A stretch of 64,000 nt of DNA from an uncultured Gammaproteobacteria bacterium. Lineage in GTDB: Bacteria; Patescibacteriota; Microgenomatia; Levybacterales; UBA12049. The stretch is taken from NCBI GenBank assembly GCA_964603935.1, contig CAZRWL010000001.1, forward strand, positions 2,306 through 66,305. The letters run 5' to 3'. Below the pieces are notes generated by a model. It was given only the letters and a program-made list of their open reading frames with translations. It did no database searches and was not told where the DNA came from. Position numbers and translations under genes: made by a program. Positions 43,608-63,570 of this stretch are shown here, piece after piece (within the stretch, counting starts at the first letter, position 1; each line of letters starts with the position of its first letter).

Positions 43608-43677
43608 TTGCTAGAATTAGCATATCACAAAATTCCAAAAAATATTCATTTTTGATAAGATAAGCCAGAGAAAACAA

Positions 43678-44451
43678 ATGAAACTTATATCTTTAAATAT
43701 TTGGGGAGGCAAAATCTATAAACCTCTTTTGGATTTTATTCAAATGCAGTCGCAAACAACTGATATTTTTTGCTTTCAGGAAGTTTTCCAAAACAATGCC
43801 GGCATAGCGGAAAGTTCCGGATATAAAACGGATATTTTAAGCGATCTTGCCTATACTCTGAACGACTTTCAGGAATATTTCGCTAAAACTTTTACAGGTT
43901 ACGACATGATAAAACTTGTTGATTTTGAACTTAATTTTGGCTTGGCAATGTTTGTAAAAAAATACATCAAAGTTTTGTCTTACGATAAGACATTGATTCA
44001 CAAGGCAGAAGGAGGAGTAAGAAGAAGAAAGGGTTATTTTGAAACTTCAAGAAGTATCCAAACCATACAATTTCAACAAAACAATAAAATATTCAATGTG
44101 TATAATCTGCATGGGCTATGGGTTCCCGATTCTTTAGGTAAAAGAGACAATGAAGAAAGAATTCAGCAGTCAAAAAGAATAGAGGATTTTATGCAAAAAC
44201 AAGCAGGCTTAAAAATTATGGCCGGAGATTTTAATTTGGATCCGGATACCCAAAGCCTAAAAATATTAGAAAAAAATTTAAAAAATTTAGTTAAAGAGTA
44301 TAATATTCCGACAACGAGAAGTAGTCTCTATACGAGAGGCCATAAATTTGCGGATTATATTTTGGTTTCGCAGGGAATTAAAGTAATTGACTTTCAAGTT
44401 CCAAATACTTCTGTTTCCGACCACCTCCCAATGATTCTGGAATTTACTTAG
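43678..44451 (+). CDS. Endonuclease/exonuclease/phosphatase (EEP) family protein
   Basis: MKLISLNIWGG N-terminus and a C-terminal SDHLP motif. Confidence 0.55.
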   Translation: MKLISLNIWGGKIYKPLLDFIQMQSQTTDIFCFQEVFQNNAGIAESSGYKTDILSDLAYTLNDFQEYFAKTFTGYDMIKLVDFELNFGLAMFVKKYIKVLSYDKTLIHKAEGGVRRRKGYFETSRSIQTIQFQQNNKIFNVYNLHGLWVPDSLGKRDNEERIQQSKRIEDFMQKQAGLKIMAGDFNLDPDTQSLKILEKNLKNLVKEYNIPTTRSSLYTRGHKFADYILVSQGIKVIDFQVPNTSVSDHLPMILEFT

Positions 44452-44484
44452 CAATTCCAGGCAAAATGTAGTATAATTTCAGAT

Positions 44485-45156
44485 ATGATTCCCAGTATTT
44501 TGGTGGTTGATGACGATGAAGGAATTCGCGAATATTTAAAAGATATTCTCACAGAAAACGGCTATTCCGTAAGAGTTGTCGCAGACGGAATAAGCGCTCT
44601 GAAGACGATAAAAAAATCCCAGCCTGATTTGATAATCCTTGATCTTAATCTTCCCGACATGAGCGGAGAAGGAGTTTGTCTTGAAGTAAGGAAAGACTAC
44701 CCATCTTTGCCTATCATCATGCTCACAGCCAAGGACGATATCAAGGACAAGGTCGAGGGGCTGAAAATGGGAGCGGATGATTATATCACCAAACCTTTTA
44801 TCGCAGACGAATTTATCGCGCGGGTTAAAGCAAGATTAAGAAACAATACTCAAGGAAAGTCTAATTTAAAAGTTGCGGATTTAGAGCTTGATAATAAAAA
44901 ATTCCAGGTAACCCGCGCAGGCAAGATTATTAATTTTACCCCGCAAGAATTCCGGCTGCTGGAATACCTTATGCTGAATAAAGGCGTTGTTCTGACAAGG
45001 GAAATGATTTTGAACAGAATTTGGCTTTATTCTCCCGACATAGAAAGCAGAGTTGTTGACGTATATATCGGATACTTAAGGAAGAAGATAGATAGCGGTC
45101 ATAACCAAAAGCTCGTCCATTCCGTCAGGGGATTTGGATATACTATAAAAGACTAG
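44485..45156 (+). CDS. OmpR-family two-component response regulator
   Basis: Receiver domain (VVDDDEGI .. DLIILDLNLPDMSG .. MLTAKDD..K) plus a winged-helix trans_reg_C domain. Confidence 0.85.
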   Translation: MIPSILVVDDDEGIREYLKDILTENGYSVRVVADGISALKTIKKSQPDLIILDLNLPDMSGEGVCLEVRKDYPSLPIIMLTAKDDIKDKVEGLKMGADDYITKPFIADEFIARVKARLRNNTQGKSNLKVADLELDNKKFQVTRAGKIINFTPQEFRLLEYLMLNKGVVLTREMILNRIWLYSPDIESRVVDVYIGYLRKKIDSGHNQKLVHSVRGFGYTIKD

Positions 45157-45460
45157 CTGATCTGAAAATATTGTAAAAATCCCAGACGAAAGTTTTCCTG
45201 AGAAATACCTTTACGGCATAAATTATTTCCATTCGTATCACCTCTTTTCTAAGGAAGGGTAAAGTTATGATCTGAAAGTAAAAGTTTTCTAGGGGAGAAC
45301 GCAATTTTTGTCTCGGCCCTGATCCTTACTTTCTAATCCTTAACCTTACCCTCCTTCTTTACTAAATCCTATGCCCTGCCTCTCTAACCTGTCTTATCTA
45401 CAATTAAATAATACATTCGCAAAATAAGAATGGATATCGAAAAATGGTAAGAAATTTGTA

Positions 45461-45472
45461 AAACCGGTTTTA
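45461..45472 (-). terminator. Possible terminator hairpin AAAACCGGTTTT downstream of giant gene
   Basis: 12-bp palindrome, 10 bp after the minus-strand stop at 45482. Confidence 0.3.
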
Positions 45473-45481
45473 TTGAAGATT

Positions 45482-48400
45482 TTAGAAATTCAGCTTATGC
45501 AGTTTCCTGTAGAATAGCTCTCTGTTCAAGACTAGGACTGATGTGATCATCAAGACAATCAGGATAAGCATAATGTTCTTAGCAGGAAAACCTTTAGCTG
45601 TTTGAGTCTTGCCTTGAGGTGTTTCTTTTTCCTGAGTTGCCCCTAGAACTTCTTTTTCATTCTGACCTATTTGATCTAATTGAGTAATTAAGTTATCATC
45701 TGCTAAATCAGAAATAGTATTGCTGTTTCCCTCCCCATTTGCCGTAACTGTGGAAGTTGTATTTGAAGAAGCAGACGACAGAGTGGGAGTGGGAGTTGGA
45801 GCAGCAGTTACAACAACAGGAGCAACGGTTTGAGTAGTAGCTATATAATAGGAAGCTTTGGTTGCCTGAAACGTGCATGTCCCATCCGCAACAACACATT
45901 TGTGAGGCGGGAGAATGCCGTCATTTGTCCAGTTGTCCGTACCTGTTCTTGAGCGCAAAACACTGAGCGTTTGACCGTTAAGAGCGGTTCCTACAAAAAT
46001 ATTTAATGTGATGGGATTGCTGAACGAAAGTCCATGATTTGGAATACCCCATTGCAGCTTGCCGTTAACCACTATCCCCTCGCCTACTCCTGTTATAGAG
46101 TCGCTTGTAGGTTCAATCGCTGTGAGAGCGGCAATATCCAGATTGCTTCCGTCGATCTTGGTAATTTCTGTTCCGTCAGGCACTGTTACGAAACTTGTTC
46201 CTCCGTTAACAGTAACGTTAACAACAGATGTTCCTAAGGAAATTACTTTGGAAGTGATTGTCTCTCCGTTTAGGGGAGCAAATTTACCCTGTCCGTCAAT
46301 ACTTTTGAAAACCGCATTGCCAAAGCTTAATCCTTCGATTTGGTCTCCTCCGGAAATGGTAACAGCGTGCTTCCCATTTCCTCCTCTTGGCGTGGATAAT
46401 TCCCAGTTGCTTTGCAGAATTTCCCTGACATTGTATGATCCGGGAATTAAATCGGAGAATTGATAGTTACCAAATGCATCGGTTACGGTTGAGAATTCCC
46501 CTGTATCCAATATACTATTGTCGTTGGCATCCAGGAAAATCGTCCAGCCGGAAAGCGCTAATTCATTTACATCTTTGACCCGATTTATATTTGCATCCTG
46601 AAAGACTATTCCGCTAATTGCGCCTTTCTTGTCTTCATCAGGCACAACTACGTCCAAAGGAGCAGTTACCGTAATAGCTGCAGCTATGGGACTTATTCTT
46701 TTGGCAGGACCAAAACTATACGCCCGCAGGAAAACCTGATGCGAGGGGTGCGAGGTATAAGTTTGATTTTGGTCAACAAAAGGAGATGTTTGATTTATGT
46801 GTTCGCGGATATCATCCGAAGTTCCCATAATCCCGTCAGGTCCGGGTAAATTGGTTGCGCGGGTTAAGACCATGAAGTTGGAATGGCTTAACGGATTGAA
46901 AAGAGGATCATCCGGCATAAGAGGTACGAACACTGTGCCGCTTTTTCCCTTGTTAACCAGGTCAAGACCATGATCAAAAAACTGGCCGAATAGAATAAAC
47001 CATGAATTGAATGATGCGGACAAACCCATATCCGGAGCAACATTTGGAATAAATAGAGTGCCTGCAAAAGGATCGGGCAAGGTAAGTTCTCCTGCGGCGG
47101 CAACAGCTGCGGGATTGCTTGGGGTTTGATCAACAATCAAATTGCTGATCAAACGCGGTTTGGAATCAAACACAAAACCATTGGTTTGAGCGTAAGATGT
47201 TAAGTCCCCTACCTTTAACGGTCCCGGCCCATCCAGGTCAATACTAACTATTTCTCCCTCTCTAAATATCGGAGTTGTCAAACGGGGGAATATCCGGTCT
47301 GCTGCGCCAAAACTTGATTGGCCGGGCACAATATTATTCCATGATCCGTCAATCGTACGAAGACCCCAAGGCAAAGTATCTTTGGGGATTAGATTCAATA
47401 ACGGTGTGCCCGCCGCATGAGCTTCCGCAATCCTGATTTGGTCTAAAATGAATTGCAGGTCAGATCTTATCAGGGTCAGTCCTGATCCGCCAAGGAAACT
47501 GCTGCCTGCAGATATTGCCAAAATACCCTTAAGCTTCGGAGATTCTACTTTGTTAAGACCATGCTCCAGATCTATTGTCTGATCGGCAAACTGTAATTTT
47601 TCAATGTTGCGGATTGTGTCTATGCCATTGTTTTCTTTGCCCCCATTGTCAGCTCTATTATCGGTTACTGTTATTCTGCCCTGAGCATCAGGCAAGCTAA
47701 TAGTATAGTCGGCAAAATTACCTGAAAATACGGCTGTGTCAATATCATTTTCGGCAGTACCCGATACCAATATTTCACGGATTATTCTGATTTGACCCGG
47801 ATTTATTTTGCCTTCAAAGATCGCTTCCTGAAGCTCTGTCATGCTGTCAGCAGTCAGAATTTCAATGCCGGGATCATTGCTGTCTCTTACGCTAAGACGC
47901 GCATTAAGCCATGCGTCCCCGTCTATAAGATCGTTTCCGCCGCGTCCCTCAATAATATCGTTTCCGCCCCCGCCCAGAATAATATTACCGCCGGAAAAAG
48001 AGGTAATATCGTCTCCAAGCAAACTTTGCAAACCGTCAATCAGCGCAATTTGACCTGCATTATTTAATGAATTGTTTTGGCCGGAGTTACCGTCAATTTT
48101 TGAGAGTTCAATGCTGCCAAGATTGTCTCCCCGCAGAATGTCGTTGAATTGTCCGCCTGATAAACCTTCGACCGAATCGAAGCGGTCGCGAAGAGTATCT
48201 ACTTCCGGCAACATTAAGCCTTTGAAAAACATATCCGCGTTAGCCGGCTGAGGATCATTTTTATAAGTAACCCAGTCAAAACCCTGCATGCCTTCATTGC
48301 GTTCAATACCCGGATCGGAAAGCATAATGTCATCTCCTGATTCGGAGTCGTAATCGTCGTCTCCTCCGCCACCTATAATAACATCATTGCCGATAGTTGA

Positions 48401-51400
48401 GCTGTTTTGAAACGGATTGCCGTTATCGCCCTGAAGCAGATCGGCCTGCGCTCCGCCTTCAATCCAATCATCGCCTTCATTGCCAAACACCGTATCGGCA
48501 GCATCCCCTGCCAAAATAAAATCATTCCCCTCTCCGCCAAAAATCTCTTTGGGATCTCTTCCTCCGACAACAAAGTCATGGCCTGATCCTCCCAGGATAA
48601 GATCAATACCCGAACCCGCATTAATCACATCATTGCCCTCTCCGCCCTTGATATTGTCGTCGCCAAAGATGTCGGTCAAAATATCATCCCCTGTTCCTCC
48701 GATTATAAAATCATTGCCCTCTCCGCCTTCCAGACGGTCGTTTCCGCCATCTCCCCACAGTGTATCGTCTCCTTCGCTTGAGCGCATTTTGTCATTACCT
48801 TCGGTTCCTCCCATAACAATGTGCTCAATACCTGTATAGCGGATAGTGCCGTCAGGCATGATAATTGTGTCTGAGGGAAGCGTTGACGGATCCAGGGGAT
48901 CTATGTCAGCCGCTTCAATATTAAAAGCCGGATGGGAGAAAATGTCATGCGGCGGATGCTTTATTCCGGAAGTATTACGCATCGCAAGTTCCGCAAACGA
49001 GTTTTGCTCAAGCTGAGTAAGAAAATTTAATCCTGCGTTGCGGGACAAATAGTAAAGCCTGTCGCCGTCCTGCAGTTTTTCCATCTGCGTTTCAAAAACA
49101 AAGTTAAAAGTAGAACCCAGAAGTCCGCCGAACGGCATTTGTTTTTCCGCAAGACCGCCTATCCAAAAATCAACATCATTAACACCGGTAATAATCCCCT
49201 TATCCGTGCTTGCCCATGCGCCCGTACTATTTAAGAAATCAAGACGATCCTCCGGCGCTCCCTCACCGCCAAGCACCAATAGTGTTGCTGCTGCGCGTTT
49301 GTCCGCAAGAGTTACGGCGTCCGTAATGGCCGTGTGCGTGCCATACGCGGCAATAAAATTAATTAAAGACTCCGGATGTCTAATGCCAAGTTTAAATTCT
49401 ACCCAGCTGCCATAGGGTTTTAAAGCAGGGTCGCCTGCAGTTGCCAAAAAGAATTGAGCGCGGGCCGAATTAAGAGACGGAATACCCGTATCACGGCCCC
49501 TTGCTAAATTTATCGTGGCAAGGTCCAAGGGTAATCCCAATAGATTATTGCGCAGTGACTCTGTTACAAATTCGTCAATTTCGCTGCCAACCTGTCCAAT
49601 CATACCAGCTGCAATAGCTCCGGCCGCCGCATCCGGAGTTGTTCCGCTTTCTAAAAATTCCAGAGGATTTAAGAAAGCCTGAATCAAACCGATATCATTA
49701 CTTGTGCCATCCGGATTAGTGCGGGCGATTGTATCGGTCAGCATGGTGTGGCCAAAGCGGTAAACCGTATGAGCGAACTCGGCTGCAATTGCAGGATCAA
49801 TATCCGTATGATAACCGCTGAATACATTAACCTGCGGCTGAATTTTGCGCGCGAATTCCTCGAATACCAAATGCTGATATTGCATTTCCGTGCCGAATTT
49901 AGCTGCTTGAAACAAACGCTCGCCATTCCAGGAAAGACCGTTAATTGCCTCTTGAGTTATTGGGAAAACTGCAGGCACGGTACCGGGCATAAGCCATTGA
50001 GTTAAGAATTCCAGATCGCCCGTATCCAAAATTACATTCTTAGTATATTCAACCAGACGATTATGTTCGGAATGAAAAATATGATGAACAGAGGTAAGGC
50101 CGATATTTTCATTAACCCTGCCGTCTCCTGCTATAAAATGAGCGTCTAAAAGTTCGTTATCATAGGTACCAGGTTCGGATAATCCGATAACGCTATCCGA
50201 ATCGGGTTTAAGCGGTACGCCTCTGGTATTTACAGGATTGGCGTCATGAGCAATATCAGCCAGGAAAGGATGTCCGCTTCGTATTGCGCCTGTAGCATCA
50301 ACCGGAGATAAGGGATTCCCTTCTACTAAAATTGGGGAATCTGCGGGGCTTAATCCGGGCATCACCAACTGAGGAAAACCGCTTACGCCTTTTAAGAAAT
50401 TTCCGTATGCGTCAACAGCCAAAAGGGGCAGGTCAAGAACATCAAGATCATCGAGTAAAATACCCAGCATGTTTTTCGCCTGAGCTTTAACCTCTGCCCA
50501 GGTAGCCATTCCTCCTCCAAGATTGCGGCTTTCAATCAGCCGTCCCGTCGCAACCGGAGCATTTACTCCATCGGATACTAAAATGTCAAATGTAAATGCG
50601 CCTGCTATTGTAGGTGTCCAGGAAAAAACTCCGCTTACGGGATCTATAGTTGCGCCTTCCGGAGCGTCATTTCCCAGTGAAAATGTCAAAATGTCGCTAT
50701 CAGCATCCGTGGCGGCAACAGTGAAGGAAACAGGCGTGCCAAGCGTGATAGACAGATTTGGAATTGGCGCGATTACAGGAGGAGTGTTTGCCGGAGAAGG
50801 CAAGGGGGCGGGTTCAGGGATTGGCAAAGGCGTTGGTAAAGGTTCGGGCGCGGGTATTGCATTAACTGTTACAGCAGTTGATCCTGTTACTTCTGCGCTA
50901 ACGGCGGTAATTATCGTTACACCTTCGGAAAGAGCAGTAAATGAACCTGTTGAGGAGTTTATTAATCCCACCGCAATATTAGAACTTGTCCACGTAACTG
51001 CTGCTGCAATCGGATTGCCGAATTGATCAAGAGCAGCTGCGCTAAACGCCTGAACTGCTCCAACATTAATCGCAGGAGCTGCAGGACTAACGTTAATTAC
51101 AGCTAAAACAGGTTGAACTGTAACTGTTGTTGATCCGCTAACTGCTCCGCTAGTGGCGGTAATTGTAGTTATGCCGCCTTTAAGAGGAGTGAATACTCCG
51201 GTTGCGGAATCAATTGTTCCAACCAGAGGATCAGAGCTTGTCCACGATACTGCTGCTGCAATCGGATTGCCGAATTGATCAAGAGTAGCTGCGCTAAATG
51301 CCTGAACTGCTCCCACATTGATTATTGGCAAAACAGGAACTACATTAATTGTGTTTAAGACTGGGGCTTCCGCTGCCACATTGATTGTTCTTATTACCTG

Positions 51401-52933
51401 TGTTGCGGTATTTCCCGCGGCATCAGATACATTGTAAGTAATAGTGAATGTTCCGACTGCCGATGTATTAATAGGCAAGCCTGTGGTTATAATACTAGCT
51501 GTAATATCTCCGTCAACATTGTCTATGGCTGTTGCGCCGGCATCAACATAAACAGTGTTTCGTATGACTTCTACCGGGCTTGTTCCATTAAGTGTAATAA
51601 CCGGAGCAATTGTATCAGCGGGAGGAACAGGCGCCGGAGGCAAGGGAGCAACTATCACATTGACTGTTCTGATAACCGGGATCGCTGCATTTCCTGCCGA
51701 ATCTATAGCAGTATATGTAACTGTGTATTCTCCTATAACTGCCGTATTAACAGTACTGACGGAATTAACTTCAACAGCCGTATCAACATTGTCTGCAGCA
51801 GTTGCGCCCGCGTCAATATAAACAGTGTTTTGTACTATTTCTACAGGATTTTCTCCGTTGAGCGTAATAACCGGAGCAGTTACGTCAGCAGGAGGGGGAG
51901 GAGGTTCAGGAGGCAAAGGGACAGCAATTACATTAACAGTCCTTATAACAGGAGCAGCGCTGTTGCCCGCAGTATCAGCTGCTGTATAGACAACAGTGTA
52001 GGCGCCGATTACGCTTGTATTTACAGAATTTACTACATTAACCGTAACTTCCGGATCAACGTTATCAGCAGCGGTTGCGCCGGCATCAGTATAAGTTTCC
52101 CCAACAAACACGCTGACAGGATTGTCGCCAAGCATAGTAATAATAGGAGCAACGGTGTCGGTGGGCGCGGGCGGTGTAGATGGCGTATCATCAACAGGCG
52201 GAGTCGGTGTGGGAGGAGTAGGTTCAGATGCTGAAACAAAAAGAGAAGATTCTATTCTGGTCTGCGCAGCTGAAGTTTGTCCGTCTTCAAATATTAATAA
52301 TGTTTTCCCGGCATTACAATCCGCGATACAATGATCAAATATTTGCACTACAAGATAAGCATTGTTGAATTCAAATTGGCTCTGCGAGGCAGCAAAACTA
52401 AGCTGTTCATCATTATTGTTCCACCAGTCCGGTCCTTCAATGTCAAATAGGAAAACAGCATCTGTCAAACTCGTATTGCTTGGGCTTGAGTAAACGTTAA
52501 TATGGGGCTTTGAAAATTCTCCTCCTGTATTGTCATCTTTATGGATTACGAATTTCCAGCTGCCTGCTTGAAAACTGCCATTAAGAGGCGTCTCGCTTAT
52601 CCACGAAGCGGAATCAACCGGCGGAGCGTGAGACGGCTCTGTTGATGGAAAAATGTGCTGGTGATTAACTTTTCCAGGATGAAAATGCCGAAAAGAAGGA
52701 GTGTTAGTGCTGTTGATGGATGAGACTTGAGAATTACCCAACGTTGGAGCGGTAGTACTCAAAACATGACTATTGGTAAGCGCAGCTGTTTGATTATGGA
52801 AATAAAATATTTTGCTTTCGCCGCCCGATGGCGCAGGGGGTACAGCTTGAGCAAAAGCCAAAAAACTATTTGAAAAAGTTATAGTTAAGGCTAAGAAAAC
52901 TGATAAAATTTTTGATAAAATAGTTTTATTCAC
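45482..52933 (-). CDS. Giant (2483 aa) surface protein
   Basis: Domain order: signal peptide, 3x DUF5011-type Ig-like repeats, 2x Big_2, a cadherin-like repeat, peroxidase C-terminal half, RTX block, peroxidase N-terminal half, SdrD-B/CnaB-like repeat, a conserved C-terminal module, a Pro/Thr linker and a C-terminal TM anchor. Peroxidase C-half spans about aa 880-1310 (FIAGDGRVNEN..HHIFHSEHNRLV, RGRDTGIPS, DGDRLYY). RTX Ca-binding nonapeptide block spans about aa 1375-1680 (GGEGNDFIIGGTGDD...). Peroxidase N-half spans about aa 1855-2075 (RTIDGSWNN, PRLISN, FGQFFDHGLD, VDQNQTY). Confidence 0.8.
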   Translation of the reverse strand: MNKTILSKILSVFLALTITFSNSFLAFAQAVPPAPSGGESKIFYFHNQTAALTNSHVLSTTAPTLGNSQVSSINSTNTPSFRHFHPGKVNHQHIFPSTEPSHAPPVDSASWISETPLNGSFQAGSWKFVIHKDDNTGGEFSKPHINVYSSPSNTSLTDAVFLFDIEGPDWWNNNDEQLSFAASQSQFEFNNAYLVVQIFDHCIADCNAGKTLLIFEDGQTSAAQTRIESSLFVSASEPTPPTPTPPVDDTPSTPPAPTDTVAPIITMLGDNPVSVFVGETYTDAGATAADNVDPEVTVNVVNSVNTSVIGAYTVVYTAADTAGNSAAPVIRTVNVIAVPLPPEPPPPPADVTAPVITLNGENPVEIVQNTVYIDAGATAADNVDTAVEVNSVSTVNTAVIGEYTVTYTAIDSAGNAAIPVIRTVNVIVAPLPPAPVPPADTIAPVITLNGTSPVEVIRNTVYVDAGATAIDNVDGDITASIITTGLPINTSAVGTFTITYNVSDAAGNTATQVIRTINVAAEAPVLNTINVVPVLPIINVGAVQAFSAATLDQFGNPIAAAVSWTSSDPLVGTIDSATGVFTPLKGGITTITATSGAVSGSTTVTVQPVLAVINVSPAAPAINVGAVQAFSAAALDQFGNPIAAAVTWTSSNIAVGLINSSTGSFTALSEGVTIITAVSAEVTGSTAVTVNAIPAPEPLPTPLPIPEPAPLPSPANTPPVIAPIPNLSITLGTPVSFTVAATDADSDILTFSLGNDAPEGATIDPVSGVFSWTPTIAGAFTFDILVSDGVNAPVATGRLIESRNLGGGMATWAEVKAQAKNMLGILLDDLDVLDLPLLAVDAYGNFLKGVSGFPQLVMPGLSPADSPILVEGNPLSPVDATGAIRSGHPFLADIAHDANPVNTRGVPLKPDSDSVIGLSEPGTYDNELLDAHFIAGDGRVNENIGLTSVHHIFHSEHNRLVEYTKNVILDTGDLEFLTQWLMPGTVPAVFPITQEAINGLSWNGERLFQAAKFGTEMQYQHLVFEEFARKIQPQVNVFSGYHTDIDPAIAAEFAHTVYRFGHTMLTDTIARTNPDGTSNDIGLIQAFLNPLEFLESGTTPDAAAGAIAAGMIGQVGSEIDEFVTESLRNNLLGLPLDLATINLARGRDTGIPSLNSARAQFFLATAGDPALKPYGSWVEFKLGIRHPESLINFIAAYGTHTAITDAVTLADKRAAATLLVLGGEGAPEDRLDFLNSTGAWASTDKGIITGVNDVDFWIGGLAEKQMPFGGLLGSTFNFVFETQMEKLQDGDRLYYLSRNAGLNFLTQLEQNSFAELAMRNTSGIKHPPHDIFSHPAFNIEAADIDPLDPSTLPSDTIIMPDGTIRYTGIEHIVMGGTEGNDKMRSSEGDDTLWGDGGNDRLEGGEGNDFIIGGTGDDILTDIFGDDNIKGGEGNDVINAGSGIDLILGGSGHDFVVGGRDPKEIFGGEGNDFILAGDAADTVFGNEGDDWIEGGAQADLLQGDNGNPFQNSSTIGNDVIIGGGGDDDYDSESGDDIMLSDPGIERNEGMQGFDWVTYKNDPQPANADMFFKGLMLPEVDTLRDRFDSVEGLSGGQFNDILRGDNLGSIELSKIDGNSGQNNSLNNAGQIALIDGLQSLLGDDITSFSGGNIILGGGGNDIIEGRGGNDLIDGDAWLNARLSVRDSNDPGIEILTADSMTELQEAIFEGKINPGQIRIIREILVSGTAENDIDTAVFSGNFADYTISLPDAQGRITVTDNRADNGGKENNGIDTIRNIEKLQFADQTIDLEHGLNKVESPKLKGILAISAGSSFLGGSGLTLIRSDLQFILDQIRIAEAHAAGTPLLNLIPKDTLPWGLRTIDGSWNNIVPGQSSFGAADRIFPRLTTPIFREGEIVSIDLDGPGPLKVGDLTSYAQTNGFVFDSKPRLISNLIVDQTPSNPAAVAAAGELTLPDPFAGTLFIPNVAPDMGLSASFNSWFILFGQFFDHGLDLVNKGKSGTVFVPLMPDDPLFNPLSHSNFMVLTRATNLPGPDGIMGTSDDIREHINQTSPFVDQNQTYTSHPSHQVFLRAYSFGPAKRISPIAAAITVTAPLDVVVPDEDKKGAISGIVFQDANINRVKDVNELALSGWTIFLDANDNSILDTGEFSTVTDAFGNYQFSDLIPGSYNVREILQSNWELSTPRGGNGKHAVTISGGDQIEGLSFGNAVFKSIDGQGKFAPLNGETITSKVISLGTSVVNVTVNGGTSFVTVPDGTEITKIDGSNLDIAALTAIEPTSDSITGVGEGIVVNGKLQWGIPNHGLSFSNPITLNIFVGTALNGQTLSVLRSRTGTDNWTNDGILPPHKCVVADGTCTFQATKASYYIATTQTVAPVVVTAAPTPTPTLSSASSNTTSTVTANGEGNSNTISDLADDNLITQLDQIGQNEKEVLGATQEKETPQGKTQTAKGFPAKNIMLILIVLMITSVLVLNRELFYRKLHKLNF

Positions 52934-52953
52934 TTAATTATTGGATAAAAAAA

Positions 52954-55900
52954 TTACTTAAGCTTTCTATAAGAAAGCCTGTAATAGCTAAGACCCAAAA
53001 CTGTCAGCACCAATAACATTTGTACCGGCCAATTTTTCAGAATGCCCAGAATAAATTTTTCCACATCTTTTGGTGAAGGCAAACTCAAAACTCCAGATTC
53101 CTGTACTTGGGTTCCCTGTTTGTCTTCTTCGGATTGAGTAGTACCCAAAACTGTTTGGTTAAATTCCGAAGTAGATGCTGAACCAGGAACAACAGAGAGT
53201 TCATTGGAGAAATCTCCGGGCATGCAGTTATTAATCGCTTGAATTCTGAAGTAATATGGGGTGCCTGAAGACAAATCGCTTACGGTATAAGATGTGGCAT
53301 TTTTATCTCCGATATTTGTATTGCCGAACTGCATGGAGCCGGAAGAAAGTCCATACACTAACAAGTAGTGAGTTACGGGATCGTTTGCTTTGGCCCAAGT
53401 CAGGGTAACTTCATCGGATGCATTTGTAGTAACTGCGGAAAGCAGAATTGGCAGGCTTGCCGGTTTAGCATCCGAGCAGGCGGATGAAGAACTAACTGAC
53501 GTGAAGGAGGCGTTATTAGATGATTGGGATGATGCAGTAACAACAGGCGCAGAAGTTGGAGTTGCGGCCGGAACTGGCGCAGCATGGGATACGGCATAGA
53601 AAGATGCTTTTGTAGTCTGGAAAGAGCAGATTCCTGATGCGATTACACAGGTGGCAGGAGCCGCAATTCCGTCATTTGTCCATCCTGAAACTCCGGAAAC
53701 CGAACGCTGTATATCTAATGTTTGTCCATCAAGCGAAGTTCCAACGAAAATATTTAAAGTGATTGCGGGATTAAATGACAGACTTATGTTAGGAATACCC
53801 CACTGTAATACTCCATCAACAACCGCATTCTCAAGTCCCAAAATAGAACTTGCGGCAGGAATAGATGAGGCAAGAAGCGACATGTCAAAAGGTGTGCCGT
53901 CAACTCTGGTAATTATCGTACCGTCGGGAATGATTATTGCGCTTGTTCCGCCATTTCCCTCAACCGTAATAGTTGATTCTCCGCGGGATACAACCGAGGT
54001 AGTTCCTCCCGAAGCTCCGCCTGTTGAGACAAATCTGCCCTGATTTCCGATATTGAATATCTGCGCGTTACCAAAGTCGTTGTTGATGGATGCGGAGTTA
54101 TTGGCAATTGCTATAGCATGTTTGCTGCCTGAAGGAGAGGTCTGTTCCCAATTGCTCTGTACGAGTTCCCGTATATCGTACGTTCCGTCCGTAAAATCTG
54201 CGAATTGATACTCGCCATTTGCGTCTGTTATAACCGAAATCTCACCGCTGTCCAAAATTCCGTTGTTGTTGGTATCTGAAAACACTATCCATCCGGAAAT
54301 TCCTGTTTCGCCCATGTCTTTAATTCCATTGGCGTTAAGATCATCGAAAACAGTACCTGTTACGGATTGTCTTAATGAATTGGTAAGCGTGCAGATTATA
54401 TTTTCTCCGGCATCAAGATCAACTGTTGCCATGCGAGCCCCTGCATCAACAGTTGTTCCGTTGTCGGAATCTATGCAGCTGATATTTAGAATCCAATTTG
54501 ACGCGGAATCTTCCCTTAGTTCATACGAACCCTGCGCAATATCTGAAAATACTCTGACATTAGATAATTCATTTAGGCTGTTTCCGTCATCATCCAAAGA
54601 GAATCTTTCATCAAAACTGCCGTTCTCTGTTATTCTTAGTCTGAATCCAAAATCCTGCGCGCCGTTAGGTATTGTGTTTTCGATAATGGTAATCGTACCG
54701 GTTGCAGGAACAGGAATTGCAGTTACGTTAACTGTTCTGGTTACGGGGGTTGCCGCATTACCTGCGCTATCCGATACATTGTAAGTAACTGTAAAAGTGC
54801 CGGGAACAATAGTTGAAATTGGCAGTCCTGTTGTAGCAATAGCCAGAGTCAAGTCTCCGTCAATATTATCCAAAGCTGTAGCGCCGGCATCGGTATAGAC
54901 AGTGCCGATTAAGATGTTAACCGAGTTTGCTCCAAGAAGAGTAATCACAGGAGCTGTAACATCAGCAACAGGAGCTGCCGCAACTACATTCACTGTTCTT
55001 GTTACCGCAGTCGCAGCATTTCCCGCAGCATCAGACACATTGTAGACAACAGTAAATATTCCAACTGCTGATGTGTCAATTGGCAAACCTGTGGTTACAA
55101 TACCGGCTGTAATATCTCCATCAACATTGTCCAAAGCTGTAGCGCCGGCATCGGTATAGACAGTGCCGATTAAGATGTTAACAGAATTTGCGCCTGTGAT
55201 GGTAATGACCGGAGCCACAGTGTCAGCAACCACATTGACTGTTCTGGTTACTTGAGTTGCAGCATTTCCGGCTGCGTCTGAAACATTGTAGGTAACAGTG
55301 TAAGTACCAATTACTGCCGTATTAACAGGATTAACGGTAACAATATTGGCTGTGATATTTCCATCGACATTGTCCAAAGCGGTAGCTCCGGCATCAATGT
55401 AGGGAATACCTGCAACTACATTTACAGAGTTTGCGCCAAGAAGGGTAATAACCGGAGCTGTGGTATCAATGCCGGTTACGTTCACGGTTCTAGTCGCGGT
55501 AGCTGTATTGCCTGATCTATCGGTTGCAGAATACGTCACGGTCTTCGCGCCTACTATAGATGTGTCAACAGGCAGTCCTGTAGTTGTAACCGTTACTATT
55601 CCGTCGAAATCATCGGTTGCGGTTGCGCCGGCATCAACATAAACCGAATTCTGCGCAACTTCAACAGGATTTACGCCATTTAGTGTAATAACAGGTGCTT
55701 GTGTATCCGCCAATCTTCCGCTGACTGCGAAAAGGTCGGTTGTGAAATTCGACAACCCGGGACCTGTAACAGAGAATGAGTTTTGTCCGATAGGGCTTCC
55801 TATTACCGTATGTTCAATGCCCGGATTTCCAACATATCTTCTGCCGGGATTGGCAGCGTTAACTAGTAATGGATCTGTAAGACTGGAGTTTGCGCTAAAT

Positions 55901-58900
55901 GTATCCCATGTTAAGTATGGTCCAACTTGTCCGTTAAGCGCTGTGGAAAAGTTGGGTGTAGCTATTTGATCGCAGGTAACTCCTCCTCCCGCAAAGCATC
56001 CTATGTCATCGGTAACATTAATTACTCCGACCTCATCTGCAACTTCATCCACGTTTCCATATGGATGATGAATGGTATAGGTTTCGCCGGGTACTAACCC
56101 TGTAAGTCTGTATCTTAACCTGTTTTGTACGGATTGTTCTCCGTCAACAGCATCTTCTCCTGCAAACGCCGCCTCAACTGCCAGGACAATAAGCGCTGTT
56201 TGAGTTCCATTGTCTATTGCCGCTTCGGCAGACCACCAGAATCCTTCGGCTCCAAAGCCGATTTGCTCTGAAAAAGGATTTTCAGGATCAACAGGATCGG
56301 AGATACCGAATCCGTCAGTTGCTTCCATTAAATCCAATGCCAGACCATTGGAATCTTTATACCAGATCGGGAAACCTGCTATAAGACCGCCTGCAGGCGC
56401 AACCGGACCGACTTCGACCAGGCCTCCCGGAAGAGTATCTGCTACATTTACTGTTCTAGTCTTGACAGCAGTATTTCCCGCAGCATCGGCTACAGTATAA
56501 GTAACAGTGTTTGCTCCAACAATTGTGGTGTTAATCGGCAAACCGGTTGTGACAATACTGGCCGTAATATCTCCGTCAACATTGTCTATGGCAGTTGCTC
56601 CTGCGTCATTATAAGCTGCTCCAACGAATACGTTAACCGGATCTGCTCCAAGCAAAGTGATTACAGGCGCTGTAATATCTGATGTCACATTAACAGTTCT
56701 GGTTGCAGGTGCCGCAGGGTTTCCCGCGCTATCTGACACATTGTAAGTTACCGTGAATGTTCCGATTGCCGAAGTATCAATTGGAAGTCCTGCGGTTACA
56801 ATACTTCCTGTAATATTTCCGTCAACATCATCCAAAGCTGTTGCCCCTGCATCGATGTAGGGAGTTCCAACAACTACACTTACCGTATTTATTCCAAGCA
56901 GAGTGATTATGGGAGCTGTAGTATCAACTGCGCCGCCGGCTACAACTATATTAACAGTTCTAGTTACAGCAGCTGTATGTCCGGTGCTGTCAGTTACAGT
57001 ATACGTAACTGTTTTTGCTCCCAAAGTTGCAGTATCAACAGGCAGCCCTGTAACAACAATGCTTCCGGTTAAGTTTCCGTCAAGATCGTCAAGCGCTGTT
57101 GCTCCGGCGTCAATGTAAGTTGTGTTTTGAAGAACGTTTACGGAGCTATTTCCGAACAAAGTGATTACGGGCGCTCCTGCATCCGCCAGTCTTCCTGAGA
57201 CTGCAAAGAGTTCTGTTTCTATTGAATCAATTCCTTCTCCTCCGACATTGGGACCTTCAACGCGGAAGATATTATTGTTGGTTGGGCTTCCGGTTACCTC
57301 ATGCTCTATAGCTGGATTTCCAACGTATCTTCTGCTTGGATTTGCAGCATTAGTAAGCTGAGGATCAGTAAGATTAGGATCTGCATTGAAAGTCGTCCAG
57401 GTTAAGAATGGTCCGACCTGGCCGTTAAGTGGTGTAGAAAAGTTAGGAGCAGCTGCTTGATTGCATGTAACTCCTCCTCCCGCAAAGCATCCTATGTCAT
57501 CGGTAACATTGATTACTCCGACCTCATCTGCAACTTCATCTACGCTGCCGAAAGGATGAGTGATGGTGTAAGTTTCGCCCGGCACTAACCCGTCAATTCT
57601 GTATCTGACTCTGTTTTGCACCGATTGTTCTCCGTCAACTGCCTCTTCTCCGGCAAACGCTGCTTCAAGAGCCAGCACCAGTATGGTGCGCGTGCCTATC
57701 GGGCGGTCTATTCCCGCTTCCGCAGACCACCAGAATCCTTCAGCGTTGAAACCTACTGTCTGGGAGAAAGGATTGGCAGGATCAACAGGATCGGAGATAC
57801 CGAATCCGTCAGCCGCTTCCATTAAATCCAATGCCAGACCATTGGAATCTTTATACCAGATCGGGAAACCTGCTATAAGACCGCCTGCAGGCGCAATTGG
57901 ACCGACTTCTACGAGTCTGTCAGTTGGCGCGGGTATTACATTCGCTGTTCCTTTTGTGGGAGCAGTGAAAATTGCCCATTCGGAAACTCCGTCTGTTTTT
58001 CTGCCGACTGACTCGCCAACTAAAGGATAATGGTCAATGGCAAAACCCGGAGAAGTCAGAGATACGGTAACAGTATCTACAGTTGATCCCAATTCATTGG
58101 ACAAGCTGATTGTCTCGGGAGCAACATTGCTTAACCAGCCTGCCGGCGCTTCAAAAACAACTCTTCCTGCAGCCGCAACAGTCCCCAACGCAGACAAATT
58201 TTGCGGATTATTAGCGGAATTATTGATCATCCAGCCTGTTCCATTGGCTAAATCTACAGGAGAAGTGCTGTTGTTAAAAAGCTCAACCCATTCTGCTCCT
58301 GACGCAGGATTTGGCATAATTTCATTAATCAAAACTCTTTGAATAGTATCCGGAGCGGGCGCTGTAACTACGAAAACTGTAAAGTGGTTCAAACCTTTAA
58401 TAGTAATAGTGTCCGGAGATTTTTCTTCTTTTGGCTCTTCAACTTTTTGCGCGCTATTTAATTGATCAATATTTTCCGCTGATTTTATTTCGACATTTTC
58501 GGACTGTACATTTTCCGGCAGAGGCAAAGTCAAATCATATGCGAAAGTCCCATCCGTCATTGTTGAGGTAATATCATAAGCAGTATCGGACAAAGCTTTG
58601 GTTTGCTCTTTCTGTTCTTGAGTTAATTTAATTTCTTTAATTGTTAATTTGCCTGAGGAATCCGGCAATTTTGTAAACGCGATTTTTACCTTATCGTTTT
58701 GAGGAGCAGCATACTCTTTGTTTAATTCAACATTTTCCGTTGTTCCCCAACTATTAGCGTCCAAAACACTCCACAATGGGTTTGCCGAAGACTCGGCGGT
58801 TTGAGAAGGAGTCAAATCGATAGCTGCATCCGGGGAAACATTTTCGGATGGAATTTCTTCTGTTTCTGTTCCAAGAATTTCTTGAGGAGTCGCTGTTGGT

Positions 58901-59304
58901 TCCTGAACTGCCGGCTGCTCCTCTTGGGTTAAACCGGTTTCTGCGGATGGTGTTGGAGTTTGGGTTGGAGCTATTGCTTGAGGATCTGAAGGAATTACAT
59001 CGGTATTGTCAGGAACAGGAGTTGTGTCTAAAACAGGAGCAGTATCTGAAGCTGGAACTGGAACTGGAACTGGAGTTTCCGACGGAGCAACTTCTGGTGT
59101 TAAATTACCTGTTGGTAAAGTCGCTGGCTCAGGGTTTGGGTTAACAACCGGAATATTAGTATCCGCAACTGCTTCCTGAGCAAACGCAGTGTAAGTAAGC
59201 GTACCGGGCAAAACCAAATTAGCAATCAGCGAAAAGATGATTAATCTGAAAAATAATTTTTGCAAGAACTTTATTTTCATTTTGTATAACGCCCTTAGAA
59301 ACAT
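52954..59304 (-). CDS. Giant (2116 aa) surface protein
   Basis: Domain order: signal peptide, Glu/Pro/Thr-rich region, lamin-tail-like domain, then two copies of [~330-aa unknown module + 3x DUF5011 Ig-like repeats], an SdrD-B/CnaB-like repeat, a C-terminal module shared with the 2483-aa paralog, and a C-terminal TM anchor. The lamin-tail-like motif is INEIMPNPASGAEWVELFN..VDLANGTGW. The shared C-terminal module reads ..LQWGIPN.SLSF.P.ITLNIFVGT.L.GQTL... Confidence 0.8.
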   Translation of the reverse strand: MFLRALYKMKIKFLQKLFFRLIIFSLIANLVLPGTLTYTAFAQEAVADTNIPVVNPNPEPATLPTGNLTPEVAPSETPVPVPVPASDTAPVLDTTPVPDNTDVIPSDPQAIAPTQTPTPSAETGLTQEEQPAVQEPTATPQEILGTETEEIPSENVSPDAAIDLTPSQTAESSANPLWSVLDANSWGTTENVELNKEYAAPQNDKVKIAFTKLPDSSGKLTIKEIKLTQEQKEQTKALSDTAYDITSTMTDGTFAYDLTLPLPENVQSENVEIKSAENIDQLNSAQKVEEPKEEKSPDTITIKGLNHFTVFVVTAPAPDTIQRVLINEIMPNPASGAEWVELFNNSTSPVDLANGTGWMINNSANNPQNLSALGTVAAAGRVVFEAPAGWLSNVAPETISLSNELGSTVDTVTVSLTSPGFAIDHYPLVGESVGRKTDGVSEWAIFTAPTKGTANVIPAPTDRLVEVGPIAPAGGLIAGFPIWYKDSNGLALDLMEAADGFGISDPVDPANPFSQTVGFNAEGFWWSAEAGIDRPIGTRTILVLALEAAFAGEEAVDGEQSVQNRVRYRIDGLVPGETYTITHPFGSVDEVADEVGVINVTDDIGCFAGGGVTCNQAAAPNFSTPLNGQVGPFLTWTTFNADPNLTDPQLTNAANPSRRYVGNPAIEHEVTGSPTNNNIFRVEGPNVGGEGIDSIETELFAVSGRLADAGAPVITLFGNSSVNVLQNTTYIDAGATALDDLDGNLTGSIVVTGLPVDTATLGAKTVTYTVTDSTGHTAAVTRTVNIVVAGGAVDTTAPIITLLGINTVSVVVGTPYIDAGATALDDVDGNITGSIVTAGLPIDTSAIGTFTVTYNVSDSAGNPAAPATRTVNVTSDITAPVITLLGADPVNVFVGAAYNDAGATAIDNVDGDITASIVTTGLPINTTIVGANTVTYTVADAAGNTAVKTRTVNVADTLPGGLVEVGPVAPAGGLIAGFPIWYKDSNGLALDLMEATDGFGISDPVDPENPFSEQIGFGAEGFWWSAEAAIDNGTQTALIVLAVEAAFAGEDAVDGEQSVQNRLRYRLTGLVPGETYTIHHPYGNVDEVADEVGVINVTDDIGCFAGGGVTCDQIATPNFSTALNGQVGPYLTWDTFSANSSLTDPLLVNAANPGRRYVGNPGIEHTVIGSPIGQNSFSVTGPGLSNFTTDLFAVSGRLADTQAPVITLNGVNPVEVAQNSVYVDAGATATDDFDGIVTVTTTGLPVDTSIVGAKTVTYSATDRSGNTATATRTVNVTGIDTTAPVITLLGANSVNVVAGIPYIDAGATALDNVDGNITANIVTVNPVNTAVIGTYTVTYNVSDAAGNAATQVTRTVNVVADTVAPVITITGANSVNILIGTVYTDAGATALDNVDGDITAGIVTTGLPIDTSAVGIFTVVYNVSDAAGNAATAVTRTVNVVAAAPVADVTAPVITLLGANSVNILIGTVYTDAGATALDNIDGDLTLAIATTGLPISTIVPGTFTVTYNVSDSAGNAATPVTRTVNVTAIPVPATGTITIIENTIPNGAQDFGFRLRITENGSFDERFSLDDDGNSLNELSNVRVFSDIAQGSYELREDSASNWILNISCIDSDNGTTVDAGARMATVDLDAGENIICTLTNSLRQSVTGTVFDDLNANGIKDMGETGISGWIVFSDTNNNGILDSGEISVITDANGEYQFADFTDGTYDIRELVQSNWEQTSPSGSKHAIAIANNSASINNDFGNAQIFNIGNQGRFVSTGGASGGTTSVVSRGESTITVEGNGGTSAIIIPDGTIITRVDGTPFDMSLLASSIPAASSILGLENAVVDGVLQWGIPNISLSFNPAITLNIFVGTSLDGQTLDIQRSVSGVSGWTNDGIAAPATCVIASGICSFQTTKASFYAVSHAAPVPAATPTSAPVVTASSQSSNNASFTSVSSSSACSDAKPASLPILLSAVTTNASDEVTLTWAKANDPVTHYLLVYGLSSGSMQFGNTNIGDKNATSYTVSDLSSGTPYYFRIQAINNCMPGDFSNELSVVPGSASTSEFNQTVLGTTQSEEDKQGTQVQESGVLSLPSPKDVEKFILGILKNWPVQMLLVLTVLGLSYYRLSYRKLK
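54935..57915. repeat. ~1.49-kb tandem duplication inside the 2116-aa gene (two near-identical copies)
   Basis: Near-identical DNA recurs at a 1490-bp offset (the run ctcctcctcccgcaaagcatcctatgtcatcggtaacatt.. at about 55981 and about 57471). Matching near-identical reverse-strand ORFs lie at 56210-56500 and 57683-58030. Copy boundaries are approximate. Confidence 0.75.
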
Positions 59305-63475: not shown

Positions 63476-63570
63476 GCGACATATCTCTTTGGGGACGTAC
63501 CAGTCGGTACATCCCTACCTCACCACTCATTGGCGAAGCGATGAACCCGAATGCAATGAGTGGTTCGTTG

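Follow-up and report, generated by a model that had tools for sequence, protein, structure and literature searches.

An Animal-Haem-Peroxidase Module with Swapped Halves, Probably a Circularly Permuted Long Peroxicin, in a Giant Surface Protein of a CPR Bacterium

The Locus and the Order of the Peroxidase Halves

The window analysed here is a stretch of 64,000 nucleotides (nt) of contig CAZRWL010000001.1 (assembly GCA_964603935.1, positions 2,306 to 66,305), and its subject is a minus-strand open reading frame (ORF) of 2483 amino acids (aa), in which the two halves of an animal-haem-peroxidase domain stand in swapped order around a block of RTX calcium-binding repeats. The segments of this cassette run I-C-RTX-T-N, where N and C are the N- and C-terminal peroxidase halves, I is a family-specific insertion and T is a conserved post-RTX region, while canonical homologues run N-I-C-RTX-T (Table 1). 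As far as sequences tell, the cassette is a real natural circular permutation in the evolutionary sense, and a conserved one.

The Pfam family An_peroxidase (PF03098) matches the protein with 199.2 bits (gathering score 25) in three stretches. In a piecewise scan with its hidden Markov model (HMM), aa 933-1160 match positions 210-415 of the model, aa 1251-1332 match 446-530 and aa 1972-2075 match 65-176, and each piece alone exceeds the family cut-off (128.5, 46.8 and 38.9 bits, respectively). HMM 210-530 lies ~640 residues ahead of HMM 65-176, which is not the canonical N-to-C order, and since the HMM coordinates are swapped along the chain, the domain order is permuted relative to the family model. 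An earlier reading of this DNA, made from its letters alone (the sequence-only reading), had proposed this comparison of model coordinates with protein segments as a check on its claim that the hallmark motifs occur once each in swapped order; the order proved to be swapped, and all seven quoted motifs were found once, where expected. Its claim that the halves are complementary, with no overlap and no second copy, was also upheld: the HMM coordinates complement each other, and a six-frame tblastn search of the window with every segment and with whole two-module homologues found no second copy or fragment of either half.

Three details of that reading were revised. The motif FIAGDGRVNE, taken for the proximal-His region, is really the distal Arg/Glu motif (R-x-x-E), the proximal His being H1062 in YRFGHT. 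The peroxidase part, said to begin near aa 880, really starts at about aa 792 (nt 50560), with the 136-aa insertion I included. RTX repeats do lie between the halves, as claimed, but the spacer is not ~300 aa of them: it measures 477 aa and consists of the RTX block (aa 1341-1560) plus the non-RTX region T (aa 1561-1817), so that RTX makes up only about half.

The break can be located almost to the residue. The sequence of a homologue across it is FLRAYEFNAAGAPVATGKLI, and segment I follows directly after ...FLRAYxFxxxG in homologues of normal order; in the 2483-aa protein the N-half ends in FLRAYSFGPA and segment I starts with (N)APVATGRLI, so that the breakpoints coincide within ~3 residues. 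The break point is therefore between FLRAYxF and PVATGRLI, with nothing lost or duplicated at the breakpoints.

Table 1. Coordinates of the peroxidase gene, its segments and motifs, and the neighbouring gene
Feature	Protein (aa)	Window (nt)	Strand	Basis or remark
Whole ORF, 2483 aa, GTG start	1-2483	45482..52933	-	ORF list, translation
Signal-peptide-like N-terminal segment (...SFLAFAQA)	1-29	52847..52933	-	sequence reading
Ig-type (immunoglobulin-type) scaffold repeats: 3 x Bact_surface_Ig-like, 2 x Big_2	~263-522; ~530-700	50834..52147	-	Pfam
He_PIG Ig-like domain, ends at ~HMM 83/96 (...FDILVSDGVN), where the cassette starts	719-791	50561..50779	-	HMM
Segment I, cassette start (APVATGRLIESRNLGGGMATW...), family-specific insertion	792-930	50144..50560	-	homologue comparison
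C-terminal peroxidase half, Pfam HMM 210-530	931-1340	48914..50143	-	Pfam, PDB alignment
Motif FIAGDGRVNENIGLTSVHHIFHSEHNRLV	933-961	50051-50137	-	one occurrence
Motif RGRDTGIPSLNSAR	1145-1158		-	one occurrence
Motif DGDRLYY	1289-1295		-	one occurrence
RTX block (R), ~9 GGxGxD nonapeptides	1341-1560	48254..48913	-	Pfam, AlphaFold beta-roll
Region T, conserved post-RTX region of peroxicins, one further RTX repeat	1561-1817	47483..48253	-	homologue comparison
N-terminal peroxidase half, start LIRSDLQFILDQIRIAE = protein N-terminus in normal homologues	1818-2078	46700..47482	-	homologues, HMM
Motif RTIDGSWNN	1859-1867		-	one occurrence
Motif PRLISN	1926-1931		-	one occurrence
Motif FGQFFDHGLD	1982-1991	46961-46990	-	one occurrence
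Motif VDQNQTYT	2053-2060		-	one occurrence
Post-cassette segment RISPIAAAITVTAP, candidate last beta-strand of the interrupted He_PIG	2079-2092	46658..46699	-	suggestive
SdrD_B-like scaffold domain	2106-2188	46370..46618	-	Pfam
Conserved C-terminal scaffold domain, 48% identity to the equivalent region of the neighbouring ORF		45764..46336	-	sequence comparison
C-terminal hydrophobic helix AKNIMLILIVLMITSVLVLN, then basic residues, putative membrane anchor		45518..45583	-	sequence reading
Neighbouring paralogous surface protein, 2116 aa, peroxidase-free		52954..59304	-	Pfam: LTD, 7 x Bact_surface_Ig-like, HYR, SdrD_B, fn3

Catalytic and Calcium-Binding Motifs

Both distal motifs of the superfamily are present and align to the chain 8s6c of the lactoperoxidase (LPO) type: Gln-x-x-Asp-His as FGQFFDHGLD (Q1984/D1987/H1988) in the N-half and Arg-x-x-Glu as GDGRVNEN (R939/E942) in the C-half. 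By the published definition these motifs hold the catalytic His and Arg and the Asp and Glu that are ester-linked to haem (PMC4420034). The proximal His and its Asn partner are likewise found in the C-half, where YRFGHT (H1062) aligns with YRVGHT of 8s6c and INLARGRDTG (N1142) with LNIQRGRDHG, followed by QDGDRLYY. In the sequence matches to PDB chains, the N-half covers 8s6c residues 67-165 and the C-half begins at residue 193. Among the columns conserved at 95% or more in the family, the 2483-aa protein retains 66/67 in the N-half and 140/141 in I plus C (206/208 in total), and its median identity to canonical homologues, 0.64, is typical for the family.

Calcium-binding motifs occur in several parts of the cassette. 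The N-half has one PERCAL motif, GPDGIMGTSDD (aa 2031-2041), and the Ca loop TSPFVDQNQTY, in which S-P-F-V-D-Q-N (aa 2050-2056) corresponds to the LPO-type T-x-F-x-D-x-S, before it ends in ...QVFLRAYSF(GPA). A PERCAL-type 14-residue loop at the start of segment I, GADGxFGTADDxxI, is carried by nearly all relatives, permuted or not, and is absent from the 2483-aa protein and from its permuted relative P0200; in the former the gap falls at aa 808-812 (nt ~50500-50510). The RTX family PF00353 scores 81.9 bits against a cut-off of 23, with ~10 GGxGxD nonapeptides in all, and the GGxGxDxUx array is internal, at aa 1376-1660 of 2483.

The Permuted Clade and Its Selection

Seven further permuted proteins were found in public data (P0198, P0199, P0200, P0217, P0227, P0320 and an ORF on L097), which brings the clade to eight members. 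With I-C-R-T as the query, P0198, P0199 and P0200 were recovered in the same order at 65-74% identity, together with the shorter P0217 and P0227; an exhaustive search of representatives added P0320, 76% identical in one collinear stretch over 1197 residues, and a scan of metagenomes added the L097 ORF of 2115 aa. The last two come from other data sets, show 74-82% identity and have the same architecture, including the N- and C-terminal scaffold and an N-terminus like the signal-like segment of the 2483-aa protein.

The cassette occurs in two settings. In the 2483-aa protein, P0198, P0199, P0200, P0320 and L097 it follows a homologous He_PIG domain, and the C-terminal domains differ; a homologue search found no protein spanning the junction of the N-half end with SdrD_B, as relatives bear other C-terminal domains. 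P0217 (1314 aa) and P0227 (1329 aa) are complete genes with a signal peptide, then AS(I/T)DTG.LIENRNLG..., and an end at ...SHPSHQVFLRAYQKR-stop; these standalone secreted forms are the permuted cassette alone, starting and stopping exactly at the break.

The coding DNA was read for six permuted genes, the 2483-aa one included, and each of them is an intact ORF with a stop codon, P0320 being known as a protein sequence. In neighbour-joining (NJ) trees of the 2483-aa protein, P0198, P0199, P0200, P0217 and P0227 with canonical relatives, the six permuted proteins form one group with support of 83/100 for the N-half and 82/100 for I+C. The motifs FGQFFDHGLD, GD.R.NEN, YR[FM]GH, IN.ARGRD and QDGDR.YY are kept in 7/7 proteins (these six and P0320). 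Between P0217 and P0227 the ratio of nonsynonymous to synonymous substitution rates (dN/dS) is 0.125 for I+C, 0.174 for RTX/T and 0.121 for N, at a dS of 0.56-0.65, while P0199 and P0200 give 0.05-0.10 with dS near saturation. Since dN/dS is ~0.12 in both halves, they have been under equal and strong purifying selection while permuted, and the sequences indicate that the permuted form is inherited and selected and no one-off.

The claim that this is a genuine permutation, neither two decayed copies nor a normal order, was thus borne out, with the HMM order, the single breakpoint, the permuted relatives and dN/dS in agreement. Two decayed partial copies are ruled out by the complementary halves, the single copies, the conserved motifs and the selection on them.

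The hosts of the clade belong to both prokaryotic domains. P0198 lies in a metagenome-assembled genome (MAG) of Candidatus Woesearchaeota, among archaeal neighbours (NMD3, an archaeal CCA-adding enzyme, an RPB9-type zinc ribbon and SMC), and was assembled independently on 13 contigs of several sequencing runs, with the same sequence on each, whereas the neighbours of P0200 are bacterial (DUF5667, PG_binding_1). As the same permuted cassette is present in an archaeal genome context and in this bacterium of the Candidate Phyla Radiation (CPR), transfer between bacteria and archaea is implied. We also observed that positions 8001-12443 of L085 (GCA_016184345.1, Candidatus Woesearchaeota) hold the same cassette as window 46700-50560, 74% identical over I-C-RTX-T, that archaeal and CPR hosts both occur in runs of the series SRR121134xx, and that in each host (Woesearchaeota, CPR) the permuted gene adjoins a large Bact_surface_Ig-like/HYR/Big_2 protein.

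Relatives in Normal Order and the Origin of the Permutation

Searching with the N-half returned more than 1600 proteins, and a genome scan gave 79 loci; those 79 loci and over 100 proteins show the canonical order at 50-70% identity. All best matches are proteins that combine peroxidase and RTX, with 50-74% identity over 1023 aa. Canonical homologues begin exactly at the start of the N-half (the equivalent of ~aa 1820, with M..FIRSDLEFILQQI.IAE as the protein N-terminus), and their chain runs uninterrupted across the breakpoint, as ...VDQNQTYTSHPSHQVFLRAYEFNAAG.PVATG.LI.NR.LG...GGMATW... into ...AGDGR.NEN....

Duplicated and fused long-peroxicin domains have been described (PMC4420034, PMC3396595, PMC6247904), and we found single ORFs of 3100-3700 aa with two modules, N-I-C-R-T-linker-N-I-C-R-T, at many loci in many Proteobacteria. 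A single high-scoring segment pair aligns aa 788-1953 with aa 303-1545 of the two-module protein L012, from module-1 I through to module-2 N. The linker between modules reads LQFNDQAVILSPGLNNQPTGQLALSAATP...[~95 aa]...GIVSPGVHFIGSDLQF in the homologues, and the T-to-N junction of the 2483-aa protein, LQFADQTIDLEHGLNKVESPKLKGILAISAGSS followed by FLGGSGLTLIRSDLQF, matches both of its ends; LQFADQTIDLEHGLNKVESPKLKGILAISAGSS, within region T, is a short leftover of the linker that two-module homologues have ahead of their next module. In all permuted members the T-to-N linker is ~30-35 aa long, against ~110 aa in two-module proteins.

Because the cassette is collinear with an out-of-phase slice of two-module proteins, this corresponds to the textbook route of permutation by duplication. 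The permutation would have arisen once, from a fused two-module protein (N-I-C-R-T-N-I-C-R-T) or from tandem genes, with a single repeat period kept in shifted phase, module 1 losing its 5' part and module 2 its 3' part, and the ~95-aa Ig-like linker between modules deleted. Behind the exact complementarity there may be a single step, for example the integration of a circle of one period, or else selection in favour of a complete domain. At the given divergence, no convincing DNA-level microhomology was seen at the two junctions. When the two modules of extant two-module proteins were compared, neither emerged as the donor of a particular half, since a module's nearest relative is the other module of its own protein.

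Some database relatives are incomplete. At L001 10001-12700 (GCA_031415295.1) lies P0002, a canonical-order relative with an N-half 68% identical and a lipoprotein-type signal, which jumps from mid-segment I to post-C-half sequence (…IRMPDGTIRYTGMEHIVMGGT…), so that the whole C-half including the proximal His is gone; with the C-half lost and the remaining gene broken into several ORFs, it looks like a decaying copy. Short database entries for "peroxidase" that hold only the N-half (250-500 aa, many on long contigs) are truncated gene calls with frameshifted ends, and the tail CLLYTSRCV of P0049 (Pseudomonas sp. HS-2) we take to be a translated Nextera adapter junction.

Structure Prediction and Nesting in He_PIG

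The sequence-only reading had proposed an AlphaFold model and its superposition on LPO and myeloperoxidase (MPO); a structural match was obtained for one half. An alignment of 39 rows gave an unusable model (mean predicted local distance difference test, pLDDT, 51; predicted template modelling score, pTM, 0.37). With 88 rows the mean pLDDT rose to 72 and pTM to 0.66; RTX/T exceeds 90, much of the C-half exceeds 80-90, the N-half stays at 25-66, and several C-half segments are below 50, including the proximal-His helix (model residues 180-187). The weak model of the N-half has its cause in the 88-row alignment, where just five rows truly represent that half and others are misplaced: homologues of normal order do not line up collinearly with the permuted chain, and their C-terminal extensions fall wrongly on the N-half. 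Foldseek matched the 88-row model to lactoperoxidase 6lf7 (probability 1.00, 426 columns, C-half only) and also to CyaA RTX domains, the RTX block being modelled as a confident beta-roll. The structural match to a lactoperoxidase thus covers the C-half, and the N-half is modelled at too low a confidence to judge its docking.

The cassettes may be nested within an Ig-like domain. The He_PIG match ends at HMM 83-89 of 96 where the cassettes begin; when the cassette is spliced out in silico, the match extends to 92-95 of 96 in 4/4 proteins, and Big_9, PKD and Cadherin_5 matches are also carried to their ends. In 63 uninterrupted He_PIG relatives VSDGxx is followed by 4-8 residues and then by a strand such as ETITVTV, which the post-cassette segments resemble (RISPIAAAITVTAP, SNTSAAVSVTIVV, TTAAATTISVS, LSVLANITVAP). 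Against a profile of uninterrupted domains the spliced constructs gain 4-8 bits, a gain that random windows of the same Ig-rich proteins equal in 6-30/150 cases. Nesting near the end of He_PIG is therefore suggestive only; adjacent termini, as a permuted domain has them, suit insertion into a loop.

Proposed Working and Alternative Readings

Taken jointly with its proposed origin, fold, contexts and function, it is probable that the region is a circularly permuted long-peroxicin (MopA/PepA) catalytic module. Export would come first, by a Sec-type route, after which the I-C and N segments would form the usual all-alpha haem domain. The new termini, which adjoined each other in the ancestral chain, should be close together in space, and the Ca2+-stabilised RTX/T excursion of ~480 aa would now link the old C-terminus to the old N-terminus, so that the N-half (distal Gln/Asp/His helix, PERCAL, Ca loop) would pack back on the C-half (distal Arg/Glu, proximal His/Asn). 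Sequence conservation and selection suggest that the halves rebuild one haem pocket in this way. The module would be carried on an Ig-type stalk and tethered by the C-terminal hydrophobic helix, the cassette existing either in standalone secreted form or as part of large surface proteins with a membrane anchor, in CPR bacteria and one DPANN archaeon. By analogy with characterised relatives, our best guess for its function is a Ca2+- and haem-dependent extracellular oxidase or peroxidase on the cell surface, acting for instance in Mn(II) oxidation or H2O2-linked oxidation; oxidant generation, halide oxidation or cross-linking of host surfaces, the first and last of which had been suggested from the letters, would be speculation.

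Several points weigh against this interpretation. In the NJ trees the permuted clade adjoins different canonical groups for the N-half and for I+C (placements without computed support), and the order of events, duplication and deletion or another route, is read from extant architectures. The N-half has low confidence in both AlphaFold models and so provides no structural sign of the halves reassembling. The residue that follows the distal His, an Asp serving as Ca ligand in LPO, is Gly here, as in all peroxicins aligned, and the activity of the permuted members would follow from that of characterised relatives. The LPO-type Ca site is incompletely conserved in ancestral families (PMC4420034). 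As regards the hosts, bacteria of the CPR and archaea of the DPANN group are generally without haem biosynthesis, so that an active enzyme would need scavenged haem.

To hypothesize further, and here we are doubtful ourselves, the permuted peroxicin could be a self-contained cassette insertable into Ig-domain loops, exchanged between CPR and DPANN organisms in the same groundwater, displayed on the surface of haem-auxotrophic episymbionts, loaded with host haem and used for redox chemistry at the interface of symbiont and host or mineral (Mn(II) oxidation, production of reactive oxygen or cross-linking).

Among the alternatives, the one that survives best, although we consider it unlikely, is that the N-half of one chain complements the C-half of a neighbouring chain, which would give a domain-swapped dimer or array and tie catalysis to oligomerisation at the surface. 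The 477-aa spacer of rigid RTX beta-roll and T would let the half extend to a neighbouring chain, the AlphaFold models show no docking of the N-half in cis (the alignment being poor there), and purifying selection on both halves is equally compatible with pairing in trans. However, the shortening of the T-to-N linker in all permuted members looks like a tightening for fold-back in cis, and an intramolecular fold is favoured by the new termini, whose adjacency is built into the permutation.

Less probable is an origin by fission into separate N and I-C-R-T genes that were then re-fused in the opposite order. Many short N-half-only "proteins" in databases, some on long contigs, could be seen as such split genes, but those inspected end in a frameshift, in adapter-derived sequence or at a contig end; there is an abundance of duplicated intermediates that run collinear with the cassette, and the T-to-N junction keeps remnants of the linker that follows T in canonical proteins. 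A fission-fusion origin was rejected on these collinear intermediates, the linker remnants and the unclean "split" genes.

Slightly less probable again is that the segments are non-catalytic relics with no haem pocket, kept as a structural or adhesive Ca-binding spacer. Symbionts that are probably without haem synthesis and the existence of P0002, a relative minus the whole C-half, would fit with relics; all catalytic and haem-linking residues kept in the seven checked proteins, the near-complete retention of family-conserved columns, a dN/dS in both halves below that of the RTX/T spacer, the exact complementarity and the secreted versions that consist of the cassette only speak against them.

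An assembly or binning artefact, such as a chimeric join inside a repeated two-module gene, has a negligible chance, since, even though the source is a MAG, the exact product is missing from the gene-position index and the GC content of the region (45-48%) is above that of the rest of the window (~36%), the junctions are in frame within an uninterrupted 7.4-kb ORF, independent assembly supports one of them, the orthologues P0320 and L097 from other data sets share the architecture, five further permuted genes come from independent assemblies (13 of these for one gene), and the composition of the cassette is near that of its scaffold. Window 41378-46992 is matched at 100% identity by three Logan contigs of other runs, and one of them, L083 (window 43227-46992, 100% identity), crosses the N-half-to-scaffold junction at nt 46700; the remaining two junctions are backed indirectly, by the orthologues. 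GC at third codon positions (GC3) is 0.39-0.44 in the cassette, 0.30-0.37 in the scaffold and 0.32 in other genes, far from the locus GC of ~0.64 typical for homologues, and being near host values, it speaks against fresh contamination. Mis-assembly is therefore effectively refuted, on read-free evidence from the L083 contig, the orthologues and the in-frame junctions.

Scaffold, Neighbouring Genes and Host

The genes of the window are bacterial (LepA, MurJ, GroEL), and neighbouring proteins on the same 88.9-kb contig are labelled Candidatus Levybacteria (CPR) by NCBI, the host being a tiny bacterium from groundwater. Those neighbours are on record in the gene-position index and the exact 2483-aa product is not, whether its first residue is taken as V or as M; since the source contig is in the collection, the ORF was probably called with another start, or handled differently, in the deposited annotation.

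The C-terminal scaffold domain is found also in P0320, L097 and P0160. The 2116-aa neighbour is the scaffold lacking the cassette; it carries the same C-terminal domain, and its C-terminal tail is analogous to the AKNIMLILIVLMITSVLVLN anchor. The stop of this neighbour lies 20 nt ahead of the peroxidase ORF start, and because of this short gap the two giant surface-protein genes probably form one operon. An unannotated unit of ~330 aa is duplicated inside the neighbour, at aa ~455 and ~905 (VEVGP.APAGGLIAGFPIWYKDSNGLALDLMEA...NVTDDIGCFAGGGVTC...).

Window 46000-58000, with the two giant genes, has 43-48% GC against ~36% in the rest, and GC3 of 0.30-0.44 against 0.32; as GC3 is only modestly raised, the excess is mainly a matter of amino-acid composition (codon positions 1 and 2). 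In every host the permuted gene is more GC-rich than its flanks, which is compatible with foreign origin and/or a composition rich in Gly, Ala and Asp. Elsewhere in the window, at 63570-63850 on the minus strand, is a tRNA-Asn(GUU) whose anticodon loop is split by a group I intron of 208 nt (Rfam RF00028, 88.6 bits, 63616-63806), and ARAGORN detects this tRNA only with introns allowed.

Comparison with Known Systems

Long peroxicins are Family 5 in the peroxidase-cyclooxygenase superfamily; they combine PERCAL with hemolysin-type Ca motifs (PMC4420034, PMC3396595, PMC6247904). Named members are MopA of Erythrobacter SD-21, Aurantimonas, Roseobacter AzwK-3b and P. putida GB-1, and PepA (PP_2561) of P. 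putida KT2440. The haem-peroxidase part of MopA (MopA-hp) binds haem, and Mn(II) oxidation needs haem, Ca2+, NAD+ and O2, with no stimulation by H2O2 (PMC6247904). The N-terminal domain of PepA binds Ca2+ with a dissociation constant (KD) of 12 uM and has weak peroxidase activity after haem reconstitution (PMC3396595), while its Michaelis constant (KM) for H2O2 is high (PMC6247904).

The 2483-aa protein shares 50-70% identity with long peroxicins in N, I, C, RTX and T, the same catalytic motifs, an extracellular location, the PERCAL pattern G-x-D-G-x-x-[GN]-[TN]-x-D-D (PMC3396595) and hemolysin-type repeats outside the catalytic domain, the modules of long peroxicins being often duplicated or fused (PMC4420034, PMC6247904). 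In contrast, long peroxicins have RTX C-terminal to a complete catalytic domain, while here RTX/T stands between the halves and the PERCAL loop of segment I is lost. Permuted members have an N-terminal signal peptide, some of them sitting in membrane-anchored Ig-domain surface proteins, and they occur in CPR bacteria and a DPANN archaeon, whereas long peroxicins belong to Proteobacteria, Actinobacteria and Myxococcota.

With LPO, MPO and cyanobacterial LPO-like proteins (8s6c, 6lf7, 1cxp) the similarity lies in PF03098 and in the aligned distal Q-x-x-D-H and R-x-x-E, proximal His and Asn; the differences are the low identity (~22%), a 136-aa insertion against ~27 residues (8s6c 166-192), the permuted order and the Gly in place of the Ca-ligand Asp. 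In mature MPO the backbone is cleaved right behind the distal-His helix, which gives a light and a heavy chain, and this fold thus tolerates a backbone break in its N-terminal third.

Natural permutations by duplication and partial deletion are known from swaposin/saposin, some glucanases, methyltransferases and transhydrogenases. As in those, each part is present in a single copy, the breakpoints are complementary, and canonical and tandem-duplicated relatives are extant; unlike in those, ~480 aa of RTX and T are kept between the old termini, and the unit is also nested, as it seems, in another domain. Classical RTX proteins share the GGxGxD array and a beta-roll, here matching that of CyaA, but in the 2483-aa protein the array is internal, with ~900 aa after it, and an N-terminal signal-like peptide with a C-terminal anchor replaces the C-terminal type I secretion signal.

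Significance

The family, its association with RTX and its duplicated forms were known already. The permuted order, its conservation in a clade, the standalone and nested forms and the occurrence in CPR and DPANN are unreported in the literature searched, where we found no report of a permutation in the peroxidase-cyclooxygenase superfamily, and NCBIfam has no specific model for the permuted cassette. The statement in the sequence-only reading that such a protein had not been described therefore holds for the searched literature, but the sequences were already public, unannotated or as "hypothetical protein". Judged by that literature, no natural circular permutation had apparently been documented before in the animal-haem-peroxidase superfamily, and since single-module, fused two-module and permuted stages are all extant, the present one offers a clean case study in protein evolution.

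For protein engineering, the cassette suggests that this haem fold can accommodate a chain start moved to behind the Ca loop together with an excursion of ~480 aa between the old termini, which may be useful for split, insertable or sensor designs of the LPO/MPO type, and for annotation it should be noted that domain annotation will misread such proteins as "two peroxidase domains". CPR and DPANN organisms are thought to be without haem synthesis and respiratory chains, and the finding would place a conserved, selected and putatively haem-binding enzyme on their surfaces, by means of a gene common to bacteria and archaea. It would give a testable handle on the chemistry of these symbionts with their hosts or with minerals, for which the 1314-aa P0217 is a tractable expression target.

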